From assembly GCA_000004695.1 (NCBI GenBank), contig CM000152.2, forward strand, positions 960,001 through 1,024,000: 64,000 bases of DNA. The letters run 5' to 3'. Position 1 is the first letter of the stretch. Each line of letters opens with the position of its first letter. Shown here piece by piece: positions 5,453 through 44,447 of this stretch. This stretch comes from Dictyostelium discoideum (lineage: Eukaryota). The notes beneath the pieces are model-generated. The model was not told the DNA's origin, did not search any database, and was given only the letters and a program-made list of their open reading frames with translations. Position numbers and translations under genes: made by a program.

Positions 5453-5914
5453 TTATTGTTTATAATCTATATTTGGATCTTTAATTTCCCCAGGATTATT
5501 ATTATCGTTATTATTATTGAAATGGTTATCTAAATTATCTAAATTATTAAAATTATTTTCTTCATCACGATTATCATTATCATTACCATTATCGTTATCA
5601 GTTGTAGTAGTAGTAGTAATTTCACCATAAGTATTTCTTCTTAAAAAACCTTGATCACCAACCCATTTCTTTTTATTGACAATATATTGTTTATTATTTT
5701 GTCTAATTAAAGTATCAATTAATAATTTCAAAGATTCAACCAATGAATCACAAACTTGTTCACTTTCACCCAATGATTTCATTGATAGAATAGTTGCCTC
5801 CATTGTTGAAATTCTATCAACTTGTGGTTGACTTCTAATTGTATTAAATAATGATTTAAATTTTAAATCTCCAAATTCTAAATGTATCTATTTTTAATTA
5901 AAAAAATTAGTGTA

Positions 5915-6005
<91 letters not shown>

Positions 6006-7016
6006 TAATAATAAAAAAAAAATAATAAAATAGTATACTCTTTTTATATCTTTTGGTATCCTTTTATTAAGTGATTTTGCATTATTCCAAGTACCATCAG
6101 CAATAATAATTGTTAATTTCTCTAATTTATCAATATCAGAACCATCTTTAAAATTAATTTTTTTAATTGAATCTGTAATTGTAGTAATATCATTCTCGAA
6201 ATCATCATCATTAAGATTTTCTTTTTCATTTATTTCATTATTATTTAAATTTTTTTTAAATAATTTATCATTATCTAAAATTATTGATTTTGATTTTAAA
6301 ACATCTTTAATATTAATTGAATCTTTTGAAGGGAATAAAACAAAAGTTGAATCTCTTGAAGATGATTCTAATTTTTTGAAAAATAATTCCTCATCTTGTT
6401 TTTCACCCATTATATAGATTTTTGAAGATGATGAAAAAGTTTGATTATTTATATTATTATAAATTGATGAAGAGTAGTCTGGTGACATTGTTGTTGAATG
6501 ACCACCACTGCCACTGCCACTACCACTACCGCCATCTCTATTCTTAAAATTACTTTTATCACAAAGTAATAATAATTTACCTGTATTACTTGCTCTACAC
6601 CATTCATTTGGATGAAATACAAAGATATATTCATGTTTTAAATCAACTTTATTCACTTTTGAACAAATACAATTTGTTAAGAGTAACCAACAATCATTAC
6701 ATTTTAAATCCTCTTTAAAGTATGAGAATTTTCTTTCCTTAACACCATCATTAATTTGAGTGTAAATTAATTTATTAACTTCTCTATTCTCTCCTGATAT
6801 CGGTTTAACAAATTCTTTTTTAAATTCCATTTTATTTAATCTTCTTTCATTATTAATTTCTTTTCTAAATTTTCTTTTAATTTCATTATTACCATTTTCA
6901 TTTTCATTTTCATTTTGAATTGTTGATGTTAAATTTTGTATTGGTGGTGTTGAATACATAATATTTGTTTGTTTTAGTTTTGAAATTGAATAATAAAGTT
7001 TACTTCTAACAAACAT
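5453..7016 (-). CDS. DTW-domain protein (DTWD-family tRNA-uridine aminocarboxypropyltransferase-like). Exons 6039..7016 and 5453..5887 (minus strand).
   Basis: N-terminal Cys cluster CNDCWLLLTNCICSK and the defining motif LTIIIADGTWNNAKSL (DGTW). Intron 5888..6038 has donor GTATAC and acceptor aaaaatag and contains an (ATT)n tract. Both exons are in phase 0. Confidence 0.7.
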
Positions 7017-24752: not shown

Positions 24753-25497
24753 ATGAGTAAAGTTATTGGCTATATTGATTATGGTGACCCGGATGGAAAT
24801 GAAGAACCGTCAAAACAAAATGGTGAATATATAGATTATTCCAATGAAAATGGCTATAATGCTTACCATTCTGTGAATGGTGGTTATGACAAAGATAACA
24901 ACAACCACCACCACCACAATCAAGAGGAAGATTATGATTATGATAATAATACACACGTTAATTATCTAACAACAAAACATTCACAATTTCAATTAAGTAG
25001 AGGACGTTTATATCAGGGTCATCAAAGTTCTCATATAATTTATCCACATCAAAGTTATAAATTAAGTAATAGGTAATGTATATATATATATATATATATT
25101 TTTTTTACGTTTTTTCATTTTATTTATTTTTTTTTTTAAAATCTCACCATTCACACACACACACTTTTGTTCGTATTTTAATTATTAAGAATTTATTTAT
25201 TAACCAATTGACTTTATTATTATTAGTGGCGAAAGTATGAATAGATCAATTAACCAAAGTAAAGAAGAAGATCATTTAGAGAATAGTTTACATGATGATG
25301 AATATTTATATGGATATGAAGATCATCATGATGATCAAGCTAGTAGTATATCACAAGAATCATCACAAGGTTTAGATGAAACTGATTTTGATAATATAGA
25401 TAAATATTTTGAAAGTAATCAACATTTATTGTTACAAACTCTTCAAAATAATAATAATAATAATAGCAATAGCAATAGTAATAGCAATAGTAATAGC

Positions 25498-25553
<56 letters not shown>

Positions 25554-25822
25554 TACTAAAAATAATATAACTGATGAAAATCAATTAGAAATTCATTTAA
25601 ATGATTTATCAATTGATAGTGATAATAGTAATAATAAAATAAATAAACAATATGTAAATAGTGATAATAGTAATAATAATAATAGTAATAATAGTAATAA
25701 TAATAATATTGGAAGTAATATTAATAGTAATTGTAATATAGAAAATGAAAAAAATAGTAATAATACAGATGATAATAATAATAATAATAATATAGAAAAT
25801 GTAAATAAAATAAATATAGAAG

Positions 25823-25921
<99 letters not shown>

Positions 25922-26537
25922 TTGAAGTAATATCAAATAAACCAATTCAATTATTTTCAGATTATGATCCACCAATATTAACAACATCAACATCAACATC
26001 ACAAAGTAAAATAAAAACACAACAACCATTTTTATTTTTTAGTTCAAATTATTTAAATTCAAGTAGTACAGAATTAGATTTATCAGAACAAGAATTGAAT
26101 GAATTTCCAATATTCGATGAGAAAGAGATTGTTCAAGGTTACAAAATCATTGATTTATCATTTAACAATATTAAATCAATACCATTGGATGCATTTACAA
26201 ATATATCAAATCTTGAACAATTGATTATGTTTAATAATAATTTAAGTGATGTTCCATCATCAATTGAATTTTTAAAACATTTAACCATTTTAGATTTATC
26301 ACATAATAATTTACATGAAATTTGTAGAGAATTAGGTAATCTAAGTTTTTTACGTGAATTATATTTATCAAATAATTCTTTAAAAAAGTTTCCAACAACT
26401 GGTAATCTTTATAATCTTAAAAAATTAATTTTAGATAATAATCAAATTACAACTATACCAATTGAATGTGTTGAACCATTAATACAATTACAAACTTTAG
26501 ATTTATCATTTAATAAAATTGGTACAATAACTTCATC

Positions 26538-26569
<32 letters not shown>

Positions 26570-28653
26570 ATAATAATAATAATAATGGTGGTGGTGGTAG
26601 TATTTATCAAAAAATGAAAAATTTAAAACAATTAAATTTATCACATAATGAATTGCAAGAGATACCATCATCATTAAGACATTTATCAAAGTTACATAGT
26701 TTATCAATTGATTATAATCAAATTAGTGTTTTACCAGATAAGGTTGTGGCGTCATTATCACGTTTAGCTAAATTGACAATTTCAAATAATAAAATTAAAC
26801 AATTACCATTTGCAATTAATAATTTATCATCATTGATTGAATTAAATGCTTCAAATAATGTTATTGAACTTTTACCAGATTCAATTTGTTATCTAAGTAA
26901 TTTAAAGAAATTAAATTTAAATAATAATAATTTAAAAGAGTTACCAAGTAATATTGGTTTCTTAACTAAATTAGTAGATTTACAACTTTACAATAATCAA
27001 ATATCATCATTACCAATTAGTTTCTTAAAATGTCGTTCAATTAGAGAGATTGGTACCGATGGTAATCCATTACCTTCATATTATCATCTTGGTATAAAAG
27101 CAATTCGTTATCATATTAAAAATCCTGATTGTGATTTAGATGATCTTAATTCAATTTCACCAACAATTGATTCATCAACAATTGAACAACAACAACAACC
27201 AATTCAATTATTTGGAGGTGGTAATTATATTGATAGTAGTAATAACAATGGTAATGAATCATTTTGTAATAGTGGTGAATTATCACCATTAACTGATAGT
27301 TTAGAATGTATTGAAATGCCACCACCAATGCAAATATCTGAAAACCTTAGAAAACCATTAAATGTTAATTCACCATCTTATCCATTTCAAAAATTAGATC
27401 CAATTCCACAATCACTTTATTCTTCATCTAATCCAAGAAGTCATACTGAATCTGATATTCAAAAATTAAAAAATAATGATGAAACAATAACAACTACAAA
27501 TTCAAGTATTTCTACTACATCATCACCACCATCATTATTATTTGGAGTATCAATTAATGGGAATGGAATTATATCAACAACAACAACAACAACAACAACA
27601 ACAACCACCACCAATGGTAAAACTTTAAGTAGACAATCATCATTTCAACAAATTCCACAACAATTTAATTTATCAACATCAACAACAAATATTACAAAAT
27701 TACCAAGAATTAAATATACATGGGAAATTGATTTTGACGAAATTCAATTCTTTAATTTAATTGGTCAAGGTGGGTTTAGTAAAGTTTATCATGGTGTTTG
27801 GAGAAGTAAAGATGTTGCAATCAAACAAATAGAATTACAAAATAATAAATCATTGGATGATTTTAGAAGGGAAGTTGGTATTTTAAGTAAATTGAAACCA
27901 CATGAAAATCTATTAGCCTACTATGGCGCTTGTAAACATGCAAACTATTGTTACATCATCACAGAATATTTACCAAGAGGTTCACTACATGATCTATTAC
28001 ATCGTGAACAATTGATGAAATTAGATTTTAAACAAAAAGTTAGTTTTGCAATTTGTGTTGCATTGGGTTGTTATCATCTTTCAACCTATGAACCACCAAT
28101 TTATCATACAGATTTGAAAACAAAGAATTTATTAGTTACAAATGCTTTAAAAATTAAAATTGCTGATTTTGGTTTAGCTTCTTTTGCAAAGAAAAGTTTA
28201 ACAACAATAATCAATAATAATAATAATACTAATAATACTGCTACTAGTTCCACTACTACTTCTTCCGCCAATGGCGCAAATAGTATTTCCAACAACAACA
28301 ACAATGGTACAACTTCAGTCGATCAATCAAGATTAGCTTATGCTTTTTATGCTGCACCAGAAATTTTAAATTCAAAACATTTCTCTGAAAAATCAGATGT
28401 TTTCTCTTTTGGTACTATCTTATGGGAATTAGTTACAAATAAAATACCTTTTGATGGAATGGATCCATATGAAGTTAAAGAATTATTAAAATCTGGCAAA
28501 AGATTGGAAATACCTGAAAATTGTAATGAAGTTTTAAAAAATATAATTCAAGATTGTTGGAATCAACAATCTGAAGATAGACCAACTTTTTTAAGTATTT
28601 ATCATCGTTTGGAAAATTTAATGAAATCAATTACAAAAAAAAGGAGATTTTAA
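24753..28653 (+). CDS. Leucine-rich-repeat TKL-group protein kinase (LRR + kinase, no Roc/COR). Exons 24753..25072 and 25227..28653.
   Basis: Exon 1 ends ...KLSN with donor ag|gtaatg (phase 2). Acceptor attattag at 25225-26 joins in frame to GESMNRSINQ.... About 14 typical LRRs (LxxLxLSxNxLxxLP). Kinase domain has GQGGFSKVY, VAIK, HTDLKTKNLL (HTD instead of HRD), DFG, YAAPE. Long poly-N/T tracts. Confidence 0.7.
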
Positions 28654-28829: not shown

Positions 28830-29336
28830 TTAAATAAACGAATAAAAAAAATCTGGTGAAATAAAATCACCTATATCATGTGCGCCAAATGGAACTCTAT
28901 GCCATAACTTTACAAAAAATAAATGGATGTTATTGGAATGGTAAATGATAAGTTTACCTTTAAAATCTTCAAGATGAGATGGATTTACTTTGAGATTTGT
29001 GATTATTATTGGTAAAATATATGCTTCCTTGTAATGCTTTTCTAAATTAATACAATTTTCATAAATGTTTTTTATAGCTTCTTTACCAAGATAGGAACCA
29101 CATGATGAAAATTTAGTATTAATAACAACCATTATATACTTTTTACCAATATGATCATTTGGCAATTCGAAACAAATTCTTATAGAAGTTTGTATTTCCA
29201 CTAGCTAATAAATTAACCGATTTGGTATTATTCGAAGAAATATATACGGTGGTACCTTCAGTTTTTGCTGAGCAAAATTTTATTGCCTTTTGTTAATCTG
29301 TGATTTCCAATTTATCATTGGATCTAAATACATTGT
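28830..29336 (-). pseudogene. Copy 1, truncated: only the C-terminal-domain exon of the B-box/NACHT-like family gene. The exon body upstream of the ORF is degenerate and the copy is cut off at the intron.
   Basis: ORF 28830..29201 is 80-90% identical at the protein level to the C-terminal exons of copies 2 and 3 (...MVVINTKFSSCGSYLGKEAIKNIYENC...WHRVPFGAHD...). Upstream exon sequence carries an in-frame TAA (gat taa caa aag) and a 2-bp deletion relative to copy 3. At about 29331 the sequence jumps from the intron start straight into the shared flank element. Confidence 0.6.
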
Positions 29337-29908
29337 GAAAATGTTAATAAAACAAGTCATAATTTAATGGACGATTTGGATTATCTTTTAAATTAATAAT
29401 GTGAATTTATTCATTCAATTGGATGTCATCATTATCATATAACTCTATGGATTTTAATAATTATTTTCTTTTGTTTTAATTAATTTATTTCCAATATTGA
29501 TAGTTGGTTTTATTTAAATATAAGAATCAAATTCATAAGGTAAACCATATTAAAAAAATGACCAAATATTAAATAAACAAATTAATTTCTTTCAATACCA
29601 TCAATTAATTCTAATTTTAAAGGTGGTGAATGTTTTTAAATAATAAATGTTTTGTTGTTTCATTCAATTGATAATGCTTCTTCTAATGATGTGACACCAG
29701 TTTGGTTGGAACATGAATAAAAAAGGTTTTTCTAATATTAGAAAATTGATTTAAAGTTTTATTATTTTTCCAATTATTATTATTAATAATATTAAAATAT
29801 TTATAAATGTTATAAAAAACATTATCAATTTCATATAAAAATACAAGTTATATTTAGTATTTTTAAAAAATCATCATCTCCATATTTGTGTTTAAATATA
29901 TGAACAAA

Positions 29909-29944
<36 letters not shown>

Positions 29945-30042
29945 ATTTACTAATTTTTAAGTAAAATACAGTTTATACTATTTGTTATTTGTTATTTATT
30001 AATTGAGCATTTCTAAAAATACTCGAGAGATTTTATAATATT
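29337..30042. repeat. Shared ~0.7-kb non-coding flank of the gene-array unit, copy A. Lies 3' of the C-terminal exon of copy 2.
   Basis: Near-identical to 32836..33619 (begins caagtcataatttaatggacgatttggattatc, ends ...ctcgagagattttataatattttataaagaaatgttttctaa). No ORF >60 aa. Confidence 0.6.
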
Positions 30043-32099
30043 TTATAAAGAAATGTTTTCTAATTCTTTGCAGAGGTTTAAATCTGGTGAAATAAAATCA
30101 CTTGTATCATGTGCACCAAAAGATACTCTATGCCATAACTTTCCAAAAAATAAATGGATGTTCTTGGAATGGTAAATGATAACCTTTCCTTTATTATCTT
30201 TAACATGAGATTGTTTTACTTTGAAATTTGTGATTATTATTGGTAAAATATATGCTTCTTTGTAATGATTTTTTAAATTGACACAATTTTCATAAATGTT
30301 TTTTATAGCTTCTTTACCAAGATAGGTATCACAATTTGAAAATTTAGTATAAATAACAACCATTAAATGCTTTTTACCACCACTTAAGTTTGACAATTCA
30401 AAACAAATTCTTATATCGAAGCTTGTTTTTCCATAACCTAATAAATTAACTGAATTGGTATTATTCGAATAAATATGTTCCTTGTTGTCCTCTGTTTTTG
30501 TTAAGCCAAATCTTATTGCATCTTGTGGATCTGTGATTTCTAATTTATCGTTGGATCTAAATATATTCTGAAAATGTTAATAAAATATTCAATATTGAAA
30601 AAAGTGTAATAAAATATGTTTCTGATATCTTACCTATATAACCATTTGGAGGTATGTTGATATAATATAACATTACGTATCTTTACTTCAATAACTGCTA
30701 ACTCATGACTAATATCATTATCCAATGGAAAAAATTTGACTAATTTTGAAATTGTATTATTGCTACTTTCGACAAAGGTGTTGATTTTGTTGAGGATAAG
30801 AATTGCTATATTTTCTTCAAATGGGGTAGATTTAGTATAATCGATTAAAGGGAATTTTGTTAATTTTTCTAAATGTGATATTTTTAATTTTTGTGCAATT
30901 TTATAAAGACCAAAAATTGGTACAAATATGACATTTCCTTCAACCGCTTCGTCATATTGAAGGAATAAGTGGCCAGTGTACGACCAATATTCTATGGTTT
31001 TGTCGCATACTATGGTGCTCCAACTTACTGGTATCCTGCAAATAGAGAGATATAAAATAGTTTCCCAGAATTTATTATCTACTATTTTAACAGATTGAAC
31101 TTTTTTAACCAACTCTATTCCAAGACCACTGATGAAAGATGGAATGTCTATATCGTCTTTTTCAATGTTTTTCATTAATTCTAAATCCAATAACCACTGA
31201 AGGTATCTTGGAATTACACCAAGATCTCTAATAAATATGATAAATAATTTATCTTCTAATATTGTGGTCGTTGGTTTATTCTGGAGTATTGGTATATTAA
31301 ATCTATGTTTGATTATATCTTTACAAGATTCATAGCTTAATGGTGTTAAAGTAATTGATTTATAAGTCCACTGTGAGAGATGAATTTCGTGTTGTAAAAT
31401 TGTTGTGGTACCAGTTAATATTGGAATTATAAAAACATTACTAAGGGAGGCATCAGATTGGTCGGTTCCTTTACATCTATAAAATCCCAACAATTCTATC
31501 ATTTGCTTTATAAAATGTTGATTTTGTGTACAAGCTATTTCGTGTGCCATGGGAAATTCATCCAAGTGGATAAGAATAGAGAGAGTGTTTTTACCTCCAT
31601 GACCATGGTCACGACTATACAACTTAGAAATATAATGCAAAACATTTTTTACAGTAAACAAATGTTTCTCTTCTGTGTATAAATTTAAATTTGATCCAGC
31701 CAATGATGAACCTAAAACTCCTCTGATGAATAATCTTTTTGCGAGAGCCACTTGACAGGTATCTTCTTTTACTTCTTCAATTGAAATTGCATCACCGCCA
31801 CCGTTGAAGTCAATAAATATATACATTAAATTCTTCATTGTTTCTGCTAATTCTTTATTTCTCTTCCATTGATTACTCTTTAAAAAATTCCAACACTCTC
31901 TGCCAAATCTTGTTTTACCAATACCAGAACCAGTTAAACATTGTAAAAAGTAGTGATTTACTCTTTCTTTATCATTTGCAATAAAATAGTTGAACATTTC
32001 AATCAAATAATTTTCGATTTCTTTAAATTGGTTTTCTCTATCTTTTAATGGGAGATCAATACTACTATCAATTGATTTAGTTTCAACCATATTTTGCAT
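30043..32099 (-). CDS. Copy 2, apparently intact: NACHT-like P-loop NTPase with an unassigned C-terminal alpha/beta domain. Exons 30634..32099 and 30043..30556 (minus strand). A B-box-like zinc-finger ORF (32174..32425) lies immediately 5' in the same frame.
   Basis: Walker A FLQCLTGSGIGKTRFG, Walker B LSILIHLDEF, TTR-like motif FIIPILTGTTT (NACHT-type order). 489-aa ORF ends ...KWLY with canonical donor ag|GTAAGA at 30633 (phase 2). Acceptor tttag at 30558-57 joins in frame to RSNDKLEITDPQDAIRFG...KHLMVVIYTKFSNCDTYLGKEAIKNIYENC...WHRVSFGAHD...ISL*. Alternative intron (donor GTAAAG after ...VIE with acceptor ttttcag) is also in frame. Confidence 0.6.
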
Positions 32100-32173
32100 T
32101 AATTTATGTAACTCTTCTAAATCTATAAGTTTTATTAGAGGATTTAAATAATTATTAGTATTTCTAATTAGAA

Positions 32174-32425
32174 TTAATTTTTAATGATGTTAAATGAAAT
32201 ACTTTGAGCTGGCTTTCTTTTTATGAAAAAATTGAATTTAGTTTCTGTAGGTGGAATTGGAGCTTCAATATGTGTTATGGTAGGTAATAAACTAAGCTTG
32301 TGATGAGGGTGATCTATTATGCATTTTTCGCATAATAAAATCTTACACTGTTTACAATATAAAAGTATATCATTTTCTATAAATTGACAATTATGTTTAT
32401 ATGTACTTATATCATCATTTAACAT
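32174..32425 (-). CDS. B-box-like Cys/His zinc-finger ORF (83 aa). Probable N-terminal module of copy 2, separated from the NTPase ORF by two in-frame stop codons.
   Basis: HNCQFIENDILLYCKQCKILLCEKCIIDHPHHK (C-x10-C-x2-C-x4-C-x2-C-x5-HH). Same reading frame as the NTPase ORF that starts 75 nt downstream; only taa-ttc-taa intervenes. Confidence 0.45.
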   Translation of the reverse strand: MLNDDISTYKHNCQFIENDILLYCKQCKILLCEKCIIDHPHHKLSLLPTITHIEAPIPPTETKFNFFIKRKPAQSISFNIIKN

Positions 32426-32835
32426 TTTATTTGAAAAAAAAAAAAAAAAGAGTGTACTATAAAATAAAAAAATGGGTGTGATATAAAATTTATAGTTTTT
32501 CTGAATAAAAGAAAAAAAAAAAAAAAAAAAATAGTAAATTTTATGTCTTTTTTTTTTTTTTTTTTTTTACTTTTTTTGGGTTTTTTTTTTTTTTTTTTTT
32601 TTTTGGAGGGGAATTATTTTTGAAAAACCAGTTTTAAATGATAATAAAACTATTTATTCATCAAATCTTTCTATAAATCCAAATTAAAACTTTTTTAGTT
32701 TGTTCTTTAAAATCTAATGGTACTTCCATAACAGTTCTAGATATACCAACAAATCTTCTTCTCTTTCTAAAATTAATCCAATCACCTAATAAAATTCCCT
32801 CCAAATTTACAAATTCACCATATGGAAATGAAAAT

Positions 32836-33474
32836 GTTATTAAAACAAGTCATAATTTAATGGACGATTTGGATTATCTTTTAAAATTAATAATGTGGAT
32901 TTATTCTTTTCAATTGGATGTCATCATAACTCTATGATAATTATTTTCTTTTGTTTTAATTAATTTATTTCCAAATATTGGTAGTTGGTTTGATTAAAAA
33001 ATAAGAATCAAATTCATAATGTAAACCATATAAAAATGACCAAATATTAAATAAACAAAATAATTTCTTTCAACAACACCAATTAATTCTACCATTTTCA
33101 TTTTCATTTTCATTTTGAATTGTTGATGTTAAATTTTGTATTGGTGGTGTTGAATACATAATATTTGTTTGTTTTAGTTTTGATTTTAAAGGTGGTGAAT
33201 GTTTTTAAATAAAAAATGTTTTGTTGTTTCATTTAATTGATGTTTCTTCTTAAGATGTACCACCAGTTTGGTTGGAATATGAATAAAAAAAGGTTTTCTA
33301 ATATTAGAAAATCGATTTAAAGTTTTATTATTTTCCCAATTATTATTATTAATAGTATTTTTAATATATATAAATGTTATGAAAAACATTATCAATTTCA
33401 TATAAAAATACAAGTTTATTTATTATTTGTAACAAATCATCATCTCCATATTTGTGTTTAAATATATGAACAAA

Positions 33475-33510
<36 letters not shown>

Positions 33511-33619
33511 ATTTACTAATTTTTAAGTAAAATACAGTTTATACTATTTGTTATTTGTTATTTATTAATTGAGCATTTTCTAAAATTACTCGAGAGTTTT
33601 TAAAATATAAATAAATATT
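32836..33619. repeat. Shared flank element, copy B. Carries a 93-bp insertion (33091..33183) identical to 6891..6983.
   Basis: Aligns with 29337..30042 except for the inserted block accattttcattttcattttcattttgaattgttgatg...gttttagttttga. Confidence 0.6.
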
Positions 33620-34975
33620 TTATAAAGAAATGTTTTCTAATCCTTTATAGAGATTTAAATCTGGTGAAATAAAATCACCTATATCATGTGCGCCAAATGA
33701 TACTCTATGCCATAACTTTCCAAAAAATAAATGGATGTTATTGGAATGGTAAATGATAAGTTTACCTTTAAAATCTTCAAGATGAGATGGATTTACTTTG
33801 AGATTAGTGATTATTATTGGTAAAATATATGCTTCCTTGTAATGCTTTTCTAAATTAATACAATTTTCATAAATGTTTTCTATAGCTTCTTTACCAAGAT
33901 AGGAACCACATGATGAAAATTTAGTATTAATAACAACCATTTTATACTTTTTACCAATATGATCATTTGGCAATTCGAAACAAATTCTTATATCGAAGTT
34001 TGTATTTCCACTAGCTAATAAATTAACCGGTTTGATGTTATTCGAAGAAATATATACGGTGTTAGCTTCAGTTTTTGCTGAGCCAAATTTTATTGCCTTT
34101 TGTGAATCTGAGATTTCAAATTTATCGTTGGATCTAAATACATTCTGAAAATGTTAATAAAATTTTCAATACTATAAAAAAGTATAATAAAATATGTTTC
34201 TGATATCTTACCTATATAACCATTTGGAGGTATGTTGATATAATATAACATTACCTATCTTTACTTCGATAAGTGCTAATTCATGACTAATGTCATTATC
34301 CAATGGAAAAAATTTGAAATTGTATTATTGCTACTTTCGACAAAGGTGTTGATTTTGTTGAGGATAAGAATTGCTGTATTTTCTTCAAATGGAGTAGATT
34401 TAGTATAATCGATTAAAGGGAATTTTGTTAATTTTTCTAAATGTGATATTTTTAATTTTTGTGCAATTTTATAAAGACCAAAAATTGGTACAAATATGAC
34501 ATTTCCTTCAACCGCTTCGTCATATTGAAGGAATAAGTGGCCAGTGTACGACCAATATTCTATGGTTTTGTCGCATACTATGGTGCTCCAACTTACTGGT
34601 ATCCTGCAAATAGAGAGATATAAAATAGTTTCCCAGAATTTATTATCTACTATTTTAACAGATTGAACTTTTTTAACCAACTCTATTCCAAGACCACTGA
34701 TGAAAGATGGAATGTCTATATCGTCTTTTTCAATGTTTTTCATTAATTCTAAATCCAATAACCACTCAAGGTATCTTGGAATTACACCAAGATCTCTAAT
34801 AAATATGATAAATAATTTATCTTCTAATATTGTGGTGGTTGGTTTATTCTGGAGTATTGGTATTAAATCTATGCTTGATAATTTATTTACAAGATTCATA
34901 GCTTAATGGTGTTAAAGTAATTGATTTATAAGTCCACTGTGAGAGATGAATTTCTTGTTGTAAAATTGTTAGGAT
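33620..34975 (-). pseudogene. Copy 3, 5'-truncated and frameshifted: C-terminal-domain exon 33620..34133 plus NTPase 3' part 34213..about 34975. It lacks the P-loop half.
   Basis: NTPase ORF 34276..34899 is about 99% identical to residues about 270-489 of copy 2. A 10-bp deletion near 34318 (relative to 30738 in copy 2) shifts the frame. Homology ends abruptly near 34975 (the corresponding point in copy 2 is about 31400). Intron signals GTAAGA and tttag are conserved. Confidence 0.6.
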
Positions 34976-43638: not shown

Positions 43639-44447
43639 TATTATTATTATTATTATTACATGTAATATAATTCCTTCCGATTGAAATAATGAAAAAATTA
43701 AAAAAATAAAAAAATAAAAAAAAAATAAAAAAAAAATAAAATTTTTTTTTTTTTTTTTTTTTTTTTAATCAAAAATAAATTAAATTGAAAATATTATCAA
43801 CGTTAGATCACAAAACTGTTAAAACTCACATCAACTAATTTTAAAATATAGCTCAACAAATTAAATACTTAAGATAATTTTTTTTTTTTTGGTTTTTTTA
43901 ATCAAAAAATAAATTAAATTAAAAATATTATCAACATTAGATCACAAAACTGCCAAAACTCACATCAACTAATTTTAAACATAGCTCAACAAATAATATT
44001 CTTTGTAATATTTTTTTTTATAATTAAAAAAAAAAAAAAAGAAAAAAAAAAAAAAAAAAAGAAAAAAAGGGAAAGAAAATTAGAAATTTAGAAATTTTAG
44101 GGTTGTACATAAAAATACCAGATTGTACAATTTCTGATTTTTTGTAAATTTAATGTAAAAAAAAACAAATTTATAAATAAGCCACACGATTTTTGATTAC
44201 AACCATTTGATTACAATAAAATTAAAGATTTTTTTTGATATTTTGAAAAGAAAAAAAAATAAAATTTAAAAAAAATAAAATAATTTTTAATGATTTCTTT
44301 TTTTTTTTTATTTTTTTTATTTTTTTTTTTTTTATTTTTAGAACAACCTAGATTTTTTTTTTTTTTTTCACACTACTTTTTTTTTTTTTTTTTAAATATA
44401 GAAATAATAATAAACAAATTTATTTTTTTAAAAAAAAAAAAAAGAAA

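Follow-up and report, generated by a model that had tools for sequence, protein, structure and literature searches.

What kind of protein is encoded by a small, partly broken gene array of Dictyostelium discoideum, and does the array represent a family of immune receptors? The array occupies positions 28830-34975 of a 64,000-nucleotide stretch of DNA (assembly GCA_000004695.1, contig CM000152.2, positions 960,001 to 1,024,000), hereafter the window, to which all coordinates refer, and it holds one intact gene, DDB_G0278513, between two damaged copies. The original prediction, made from the letters of the window, saw in this gene an NLR-like protein with a B-box-like finger as sensor, a NACHT-type STAND NTPase and a variable C-terminal effector that could not be assigned to a family. 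Our analysis leads to another answer. Judged by homology, DDB_G0278513 very probably belongs to the Crinkler-type 'P-loop NTPase + HTH + REase' module (HTH, helix-turn-helix; REase, restriction endonuclease), because its body is collinearly homologous to that of Crinkler-headed fungal proteins. What is new here is a B-box-headed member of an already known module, and the array reveals no new class of immune receptor.

The intact gene

Three minus-strand copies of one unit were indeed found within the 6 kb, with the predicted features at the stated coordinates, by open reading frames (ORFs), repeat finding, self-BLAST and tblastn. In copy 2, minus-strand ORFs at 32174-32425 (83 residues, including the Cys/His finger), 30630-32099 (489 residues, containing GSGIGKT, HLDEF and IIPILTGTTT) and 30043-30396 are linked into one 741-codon frame by canonical GT-AG introns at 32202-32123 and 30633-30557, with the acceptor of the second intron set after …tatatttag and before atcc, as the frame requires. 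That this copy keeps all parts and has a spliced 3' exon was borne out by an exact-sequence look-up, in which the 741-residue product proved to be, residue for residue, DDB_G0278513 / XP_642409.1 / Q54XZ3 of D. discoideum AX4. Databases name this protein only 'hypothetical' or 'uncharacterized', just as the original prediction had allowed in its caveat of an annotated yet uncharacterised gene family, and a full-text literature search for the DDB_G0278513 identifier returned no paper. The window is AT-rich, with a GC content of ~22%, and scans of the array for tRNA and Rfam matches gave none. The features of the intact gene are as follows.

30043..32425, minus strand: intact gene (copy 2), DDB_G0278513, three exons, 741 residues; splice model and identity to XP_642409.1 / Q54XZ3.
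32203..32425, minus strand: exon 1, B-box zinc finger, the variable N-terminal 'header' (ligands at residues 11-42, ~32300-32395); Pfam zf-B_box and ligand conservation.
32123..32202, minus strand: intron 1 (GT…AG), at the junction of header and NTPase; sequence reading, frame restored.
30634..32122, minus strand: exon 2, AAA+ (ORC/Cdc6-STAND-like) NTPase, helical lid, winged-helix-like region and start of the nuclease (helix with E510).
31911..31931, minus strand: Walker A, GSGIGKT, residues 139-145; G143 and K144 invariant in family alignments.
31554..31577, minus strand: Walker B, ILIHLDEF, residues 257-264; H260, D262, E263 and F264 invariant, D262 also in 49 diverse members.
31404..31430, minus strand: sensor-1-like strand, IIPILTGTT, residues 306-314; P308, L310 and T311-T313 nearly invariant, model strand E222-230.
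31200..31220, minus strand: GVIPRYL motif, residues 376-382, GxP / sensor-2-like; P379 and R380 conserved, aligned with GGLPRAL of the Crinkler-headed protein P0160.
30816..30818, minus strand: E510, conserved glutamate in helix alpha-1 of the nuclease; present in 91% of 78 members, model helix H427-445.
30557..30633, minus strand: intron 2 (GT…AG), interrupting the nuclease domain ahead of its catalytic strands; sequence reading.
30043..30556, minus strand: exon 3 and stop, putative PD-(D/E)xK catalytic core; D618 at 30415-30417, Y640-T-K642 at 30343-30351.

An AAA+ NTPase joined to a restriction-endonuclease-like domain

Pfam run on the separate ORFs of the AX4 gene gave no match for the NTPase or for the C-terminal exon, and PDB sequence searches with the AX4 protein and with the family profile returned only weak P-loop matches (ORC1, E 0.01; TnsC, E 0.24-0.38) and no family member with a solved structure. 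An AlphaFold model of the exon-2 ORF, built on a ten-sequence alignment, has blocks of core at a predicted local distance difference test (pLDDT) score of ~80 in the strand-helix order of AAA+ proteins. Beyond this core comes a helical region and then a helix/beta-hairpin element, in which a helix, a second helix and a beta-hairpin at ORF residues 343-392 form a candidate HTH or winged helix between NTPase and nuclease, at a pLDDT of only 57-70. Invariant or nearly so across the family alignments are G143 and K144 of Walker A, D262 and E263 of Walker B, the TGT strand and the G..PR.L motif. Relatives show weak Pfam matches to AAA_16, AAA_22, ATPase_2 and nSTAND3, and the structural neighbours of the domain include NLRs, with ORC/Cdc6 scoring above them. 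This places the middle domain among the AAA+ NTPases, in the ORC/Cdc6-STAND neighbourhood and not specifically with NACHT. Of the earlier NACHT-type assignment, the P-loop AAA+ class with its Walker A and B motifs and the presence of NLRs among the structural neighbours have stood; the NACHT label has not, for Pfam found no NACHT or NB-ARC match in the AX4 gene or in any of 149 relatives.

The C-terminal domain, for which the original prediction could name no family, can now be given a probable fold. In the exon-3 model, a core at pLDDT ~80 shows strand-strand-helix-strand-helix-strand-helix topology, and the top Foldseek matches are MspJI, NucS/EndoMS and Can2, with probabilities up to 0.97 and E values no better than 0.018. 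Conserved across 78 members are E510 (91%), D618 (91%), R620 (74%), Q640 (78%) and K642 (K in 83%, R in 10%). In the models, E510 sits in the preceding helix alpha-1 (H427-445), D618 in the first long strand (strand 2) and Q-x-K in the next strand (strand 3), which gives the family motif E…D…QxK; in place of this Q, the D. discoideum clade has N and the AX4 gene Y (Y640). Modelling and Foldseek thus support a PD-(D/E)xK restriction-endonuclease fold, and although the fold scores are each weak alone, this call is credible because the conserved residues fall at the canonical positions of such enzymes. The D…QxK arrangement resembles that reportedly described for Mrr by Bujnicki and Rychlewski in 2001. 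As E510, in an exon-2 helix, belongs to the PD-(D/E)xK positions, the nuclease domain therefore begins near residue 500 and is split by intron 2.

Family membership and the link to Crinkler proteins

A word-indexed search recovered six proteins of D. discoideum or D. cf. discoideum, at 67-85% identity, as well as two from Cavenderia and one from a transcriptome. A scan of 1.84 billion representative proteins with a hidden Markov model (HMM) of the dictyostelid sequences extended this set to 359 relatives at E <=1e-3, of which 121 reached E <=1e-10, and many of them span the protein from the NTPase to the C-terminus. With local domain HMMs, both the NTPase and the nuclease were found in 92 of 162 collected proteins, the rest being mostly fragments; named members include another Dictyostelium paralogue and proteins of Luapelamoeba, Modicella, Capsaspora and Pithovirus LCPAC104. 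A pattern scan detected no relatives in IMG/VR viral contigs or GTDB prokaryotic genomes. At the N-termini of 149 members, a Pfam scan identified the Crinkler domain PF20147 in three, SAM in three and a B-box in two. Together, these comparisons show that NTPase, helical region and nuclease form one conserved unit and that the N-terminus is the variable part, bearing a B-box, SAM or the ubiquitin-like Crinkler header. This is the opposite of the predicted NLR layout with a variable C-terminal effector, since the NTPase and C-terminal domain are constant and the N-terminus varies; nor is a repeat-type sensor domain present.

The link to Crinkler proteins is carried by several matches. Two Mortierellaceae proteins, P0160 and P0161, match the family profile at E ~1e-76 and, immediately ahead of the module, bear PF20147, the 'Crinkler effector protein N-terminal domain' (E 4e-24). 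When the Mortierellaceae module alone was used as query, more than 100 proteins of Mortierellomycotina and Glomeromycotina were recovered, most with PF20147 and several named 'Crinkler family protein'. Five of these proteins, P0055, P0102, P0114, P0144 and P0146, were also direct matches of the dictyostelid-only profile, at E values from 2e-20 to 1.5e-9, among them a 'crinkler family protein' of Gigaspora (P0146, E 1.5e-9) and a 'Crinkler family protein' of Rhizophagus (P0144), and DDB_G0278513 itself matched P0160 by BLASTP at E 9e-12 over the NTPase. Alignment of the dictyostelid profile with the profile of Crinkler-headed fungal proteins by hhalign gave a probability of 99.9% and an E value of 7.6e-33 over 672 columns, with residues 14-738 collinear with 46-819. 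The D and QxK motifs of the two nucleases are paired in this alignment, FDIRICF with FGDVCVC and VVIYTKF with FALQAKK.

The C-terminal module of Crinklers was described in 2016. In CRN or CR (Crinkler-RHS-type) proteins, a header that is often ubiquitin-like precedes enzymatic modules at the C-terminus; the C-terminal architecture most frequent in the CRN proteins of Phytophthora is NTPase + HTH + REase, in which toxicity has been attributed to the REase and a regulatory role to the NTPase (PMC5289972, summarising Zhang et al., 2016). The numbered REase and NTPase subfamilies of Zhang et al. were also used for Rhizophagus, where most CRN-like proteins have no signal peptide and could function within the fungus (PMC6131194). 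In addition, CRN homologues occur in free-living lineages, including amoebozoans (PMC12957317).

Two family members deserve separate mention. The protein P0158 / QBK90691.1, from the metagenome-assembled genome of Pithovirus LCPAC104, is a full-length NTPase-nuclease member with an E value of 2.5e-26 to the dictyostelid profile. In P0008 (Cavenderia fasciculata DFA_06856), a Tim17-family membrane domain (Pfam E 1.2e-12) is joined to the family NTPase and the middle of the protein is missing, and this is probably a merged or faulty gene model.

The B-box header

Residues 11-42 of the AX4 protein carry an eight-ligand pattern, H11-x-C13 … C24-x2-C27 … C32-x2-C35 … H39-x-H41, whose ligands are kept in all Dictyostelium homologues of the alignment. 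The match of the AX4 protein to Pfam zf-B_box (E 2.5e-4, 21.6 bits) falls just below the cut-off of 24.1; one family member reaches E 7.9e-7 in the Pfam scan, and PF00643 is recorded in the database for the orthologue P0006 and the paralogue P0013. The Cys/His finger that had been called B-box-like is a real B-box. Encoded in an exon of its own, it looks like a header exchanged by exon shuffling. The extreme N-terminus of the protein (MLNDDISTYKH…) is hydrophilic on sequence reading and has no evident signal peptide, a feature it would have in common with most fungal CRN-like proteins (PMC6131194). A Crinkler-like ubiquitin fold was also considered for the N-termini of the Cavenderia and other Dictyostelium paralogues and was unsupported, with an hhalign probability of 0.1% against the Crinkler header for a three-sequence alignment.

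One orthologue, P0001 of assembly GCA_054859385.1, has the segment just ahead of Walker A duplicated at residues ~120-140 (…NHYFLQCLTGSE… repeated), either as an in-frame tandem duplication or as an annotation artefact at a splice site.

Damaged copies and history of the locus

Self-BLAST of the array matched 29605-31404 to 33174-34970 at 92% identity over 1.8 kb, 29336-29613 to 32829-33091 at 88%, and 28849-29352 to both 33657-34162 (96%) and 30080-30585 (86%), a degree of repetition far beyond chance. By tblastn with the spliced protein, copy 3 corresponds to residues 315-741 and copy 1 to residues 569-741, and there were no further matches elsewhere within the 64-kb window. The remaining features of the array are these.

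33623..34970, minus strand: copy 3, pseudogene fragment of residues 315-741, 5'-truncated, with two frameshifting deletions; self-BLAST and tblastn.
28848..29352, minus strand: copy 1, fragment with part of intron 2 and exon 3 (residues 569-741); self-BLAST and tblastn.
29336..30042, minus strand: spacer downstream of copy 2, with a counterpart downstream of copy 3; largely missing at this locus in other isolates.
32829..33622, minus strand: spacer downstream of copy 3, 88-92% identical to 29336-29931, with a 94-bp insert.

Copy 3 ends abruptly at 34970, the equivalent of 31404 and just past the LTGTT strand, and is frameshifted by deletions of 2 nt near 34863 and 10 nt near 34317; another D. 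discoideum assembly annotates its 207-residue ORF as KAM9948952.1. Copy 1, which starts within intron 2, has lost 2 nt at 29184 and is divergent at its 3' end, beyond 28848. Matches of copy 1 to DUF2080 and CdsD_C (E 0.008-0.03) were dismissed as noise.

Two other isolates labelled D. discoideum, represented by contigs of GCA_054859385.1 and GCA_054859355.1 that match the window at ~91-93% of nucleotides, bear on the history of these pieces. In the first isolate, one intact gene and no partial copies lie between the orthologues of window positions 34972 and 28770 (locus 1), and blastn of the second isolate's contig points to the same single-gene arrangement. Both isolates have a second intact paralogue (P0005, 727 residues; P0003, 752 residues) ~12.5 kb upstream, between the orthologues of window positions ~43907 and ~43705 (locus 2). 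In the window this interval holds only ~200 bp of low-complexity DNA, a presence/absence polymorphism of ~3.9 kb (against L002 9373-13529 and L003 9533-13474). No terminal repeats or target duplications were recognisable at this site, where the boundaries are AT-rich and of low complexity and the search was swamped by low-complexity matches.

The exons of copy 2 differ in their affinities. Over the B-box and NTPase, copy 2 is the orthologue of the locus-1 gene, with a sliding-window identity of 92-98%, which drops to 79-89% over exon 3. In a matrix of exon-3 sequences, copies 1 (28848-29352) and 3 (33623-34132) are 93.6-94.5% identical to the locus-1 exon, whereas exon 3 of copy 2 (30043-30556) is 89-90% identical to the locus-2 paralogues and 85% identical to locus 1. 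Synonymous divergence (dS) of the nuclease core is 0.31 from the locus-1 orthologue and 0.08 from the locus-2 paralogue. From these patterns we infer that the nuclease exon of the AX4 gene was replaced by recombination among paralogues near intron 2, with the displaced pieces left alongside. Copies 1 and 3 may therefore be leftovers of recombination or duplication specific to this lineage, rather than decayed full-length genes, because the other two isolates lack fragments at this locus. The prediction of tandem duplication with rapid pseudogenisation thus holds insofar as the locus is dynamic and copies 1 and 3 are broken, but it may have misread the origin of the fragments. The ratio of nonsynonymous to synonymous divergence (dN/dS) to the orthologue is 0.48 overall and ~0.45-0.5 in every domain. 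Comparison with the paralogue gives ratios of 2.3 (B-box) and 1.8 (nuclease core), values that are only suggestive given the few synonymous differences (sd, 3 and 7).

Several further observations were made around the array. The 94-bp insert at 33090-33183, missing from the equivalent spacer of copy 2, is 100% identical to 6890-6983, in the 5' coding region of an unrelated minus-strand ORF (5907-7016) 26 kb away; it has no tRNA or Rfam match and looks like a templated filler insertion. Directly downstream of the array, at 25237-28653 on the plus strand, lies a single ORF of 1138 residues with leucine-rich repeats and a C-terminal protein kinase domain, presumably the neighbouring gene DDB_G0278509. 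Its exact sequence is absent from the protein collection, and the annotated model is probably different. Finally, the assemblies labelled Dictyostelium discoideum (L001-L003) differ from the window at 7-9% of nucleotides across 20 kb of syntenic sequence, a divergence large for a single species and suggestive of cryptic species or deeply split lineages in this set of isolates.

Proposed function and alternative explanations

Taken as a whole, the sequence and model data make it likely on balance that DDB_G0278513 is a cytoplasmic or nuclear, NTP-regulated, nuclease-type protein of the Crinkler module. We postulate that its AAA+ domain would bind and hydrolyse ATP and would gate the Mrr-like E…D…QxK nuclease, via oligomerisation or via engagement of DNA by the candidate winged helix, with the nuclease doing the damage or execution. 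The B-box could stand in for the usual header as an adaptor for oligomerisation or partner binding. Rather than in housekeeping, such a protein would most likely act in biological conflict, whether directed at other cells or invaders or in the manner of a selfish or defensive nuclease, and the flanking fragments would be the leftovers of the paralogue recombination that swapped its nuclease exon. The dynamics of the locus, namely presence/absence and copy-number differences, exon-3 replacement and dN/dS, are consistent with conflict. It is tempting to speculate further that a Crinkler-type module has been turned inward in Dictyostelium, as a B-box-fused, cell-autonomous sensor and executioner or as a strain-specific nuclease of competition or kin discrimination, in which paralogues would exchange nuclease exons as bacterial polymorphic toxins do their C-terminal cassettes, and copies 1 and 3 would be 'orphan' nuclease exons next to the active gene; we consider this extension quite unlikely.

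Some of our observations weigh against an active Crinkler-type nuclease. Position 640 is Y in AX4 and N in close relatives where the family has Q, and position 564 is H where half of the family has E (E/D), both of which make catalysis uncertain; because the Q position carries Y, the AX4 allele may be catalytically weak or inactive. Pfam found no PF20147 header in the AX4 protein, and with the Crinkler N-terminal header missing and no evident signal peptide the label 'effector' is not justified for DDB_G0278513. Furthermore, a dN/dS of 0.48 fits relaxed constraint as well as conflict. 

The same residues lend some weight to the idea that the AX4 gene is a decaying or non-catalytic remnant, nearing loss or kept solely to bind DNA or act as a scaffold, with no nuclease activity. 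Along with Y for Q at 640 and H for E/D at 564, this idea could draw on the dN/dS values of ~0.45-0.5 to the orthologue in all domains, on the breakage of two of the three copies in the window and on the second paralogue missing from the AX4 genome. Yet neither the 741-codon frame nor either of the GT-AG introns is disrupted, the protein keeps Walker A, Walker B, sensor-1, E510, D618, R620 and K642, dN/dS to the orthologue is clearly below 1, and at least four other assemblies have intact orthologues, so that we regard a remnant as unlikely. A transposon-related origin, in which the gene would be a passenger or core gene of a mobile element that pairs an AAA+ ATPase with a restriction-endonuclease-fold nuclease, like TnsC and TnsA of Tn7, would explain both the presence/absence pattern and the partial copies, and the ~3.9 kb with a paralogue that two isolates have and window ~43705-43907 lacks could be read in that way. 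The title of Zhang et al. (2016), 'Transposons to toxins', also suggests a transposon origin of such modules. This explanation appears very improbable, however: no transposase, integrase or reverse transcriptase lies within or beside the 3.57-kb unit, the copies are tandem at a single locus rather than dispersed, terminal repeats and target duplications could not be recognised in the AT-rich low-complexity boundaries, and the pattern scan of IMG/VR and GTDB prokaryotic genomes found no relatives.

The NLR-like reading of the original prediction can be restated, now that the fold of the C-terminal domain has been proposed, as a STAND immune receptor in which the B-box senses a ligand, the NTPase oligomerises and the nuclease kills the infected cell, a eukaryotic counterpart of the bacterial Avs-type STAND nucleases. 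One relative does match nSTAND3 weakly and several match AAA_16, the Avs4 nuclease domain is among the weak Foldseek matches, and the locus is polymorphic between isolates. Crinkler ubiquitin-like and SAM domains are also found at the N-termini of fungal NLRs, so the header repertoire overlaps with that of immune NTPases (PMC9815663). Against this, ORC/Cdc6 outscores the NLRs as a structural match, none of the scanned members has an LRR, WD40, TPR or ankyrin sensor domain, the protein ends right after the nuclease, the variable part is a small N-terminal adaptor and no sensor, and no PADLOC defence model was matched. Because the NACHT/NB-ARC signature and a repeat sensor are absent and the variability is reversed, DDB_G0278513 is better filed with the Crinkler-type module, and an NLR-like receptor is distinctly improbable.

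Assignment to the Crinkler-type module provides a testable identity, that of an ATP-gated nuclease of the Crinkler family, for a functionally unannotated Dictyostelium gene and its paralogues, and indicates that the module can bear a B-box instead of a ubiquitin-like header in a free-living, genetically tractable amoeba. Crinkler NTPase-nuclease modules are widespread, and we found no biochemical characterisation of them in the accessible literature; Dictyostelium would be a convenient system for asking what such modules do in their own cell. The differences between isolates, in which the gene occurs alone or with fragments, with or without a second paralogue and with a swapped nuclease exon, resemble those of conflict genes and could guide population work.

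Comparison with known systems

Each part of DDB_G0278513 has counterparts in better known proteins. With TRIM-type B-box proteins it has in common an N-terminal B-box with eight Cys/His ligands; unlike them, it has no RING, coiled-coil or SPRY domain, and the B-box is followed by the NTPase-nuclease body. In the model, the NTPase has the core fold, strand order, helical lid and, as a candidate, the following winged-helix-like element of the ORC/Cdc6 initiator clade and of the STAND AAA+ NTPases (NLRs, BrxC and the archaeal PF01637 proteins with C-terminal DUF234), but the AX4 protein has no significant sequence match to these Pfam families and only its relatives have weak ones. The fused nuclease sets DDB_G0278513 apart from ORC/Cdc6 and eukaryotic NLRs, and it has neither origin-recognition partners nor repeat sensors. 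The archaeal PF01637 proteins, too, have a small domain of nuclease-like fold at their C-terminus.

The predicted nuclease resembles the Mrr-like or PD-(D/E)xK defence effectors, such as Can2/Card1, NucC, Cap4, the N-terminal nucleases of Avs proteins and MspJI, in its alpha-beta-beta-beta-alpha-beta core, of which strand 2 carries D and strand 3 carries (Q)xK. It differs from them in lying under a fused AAA+ domain rather than cyclic-nucleotide sensors, in sequence (identity <=20%) and in the Y at the Q position. The closest comparison is with the Crinkler proteins of Rhizophagus, Gigaspora and Mortierellaceae. Their header is the ubiquitin-like LFLAK-HVLVxxP domain (LxLFLAK … HVLVxxP) and that of DDB_G0278513 is a B-box zinc finger; the host of the latter is a free-living, bacterivorous amoeba, and the catalytic Q is replaced by N in the D. 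discoideum clade and by Y in AX4. The body is collinear and homologous between the two all the way from Walker A to the nuclease core, with the motifs GKTRFGxE, (I/L)DF, HxDEF, TGT, GxxPRxL, W..FE, D.R and QxK.

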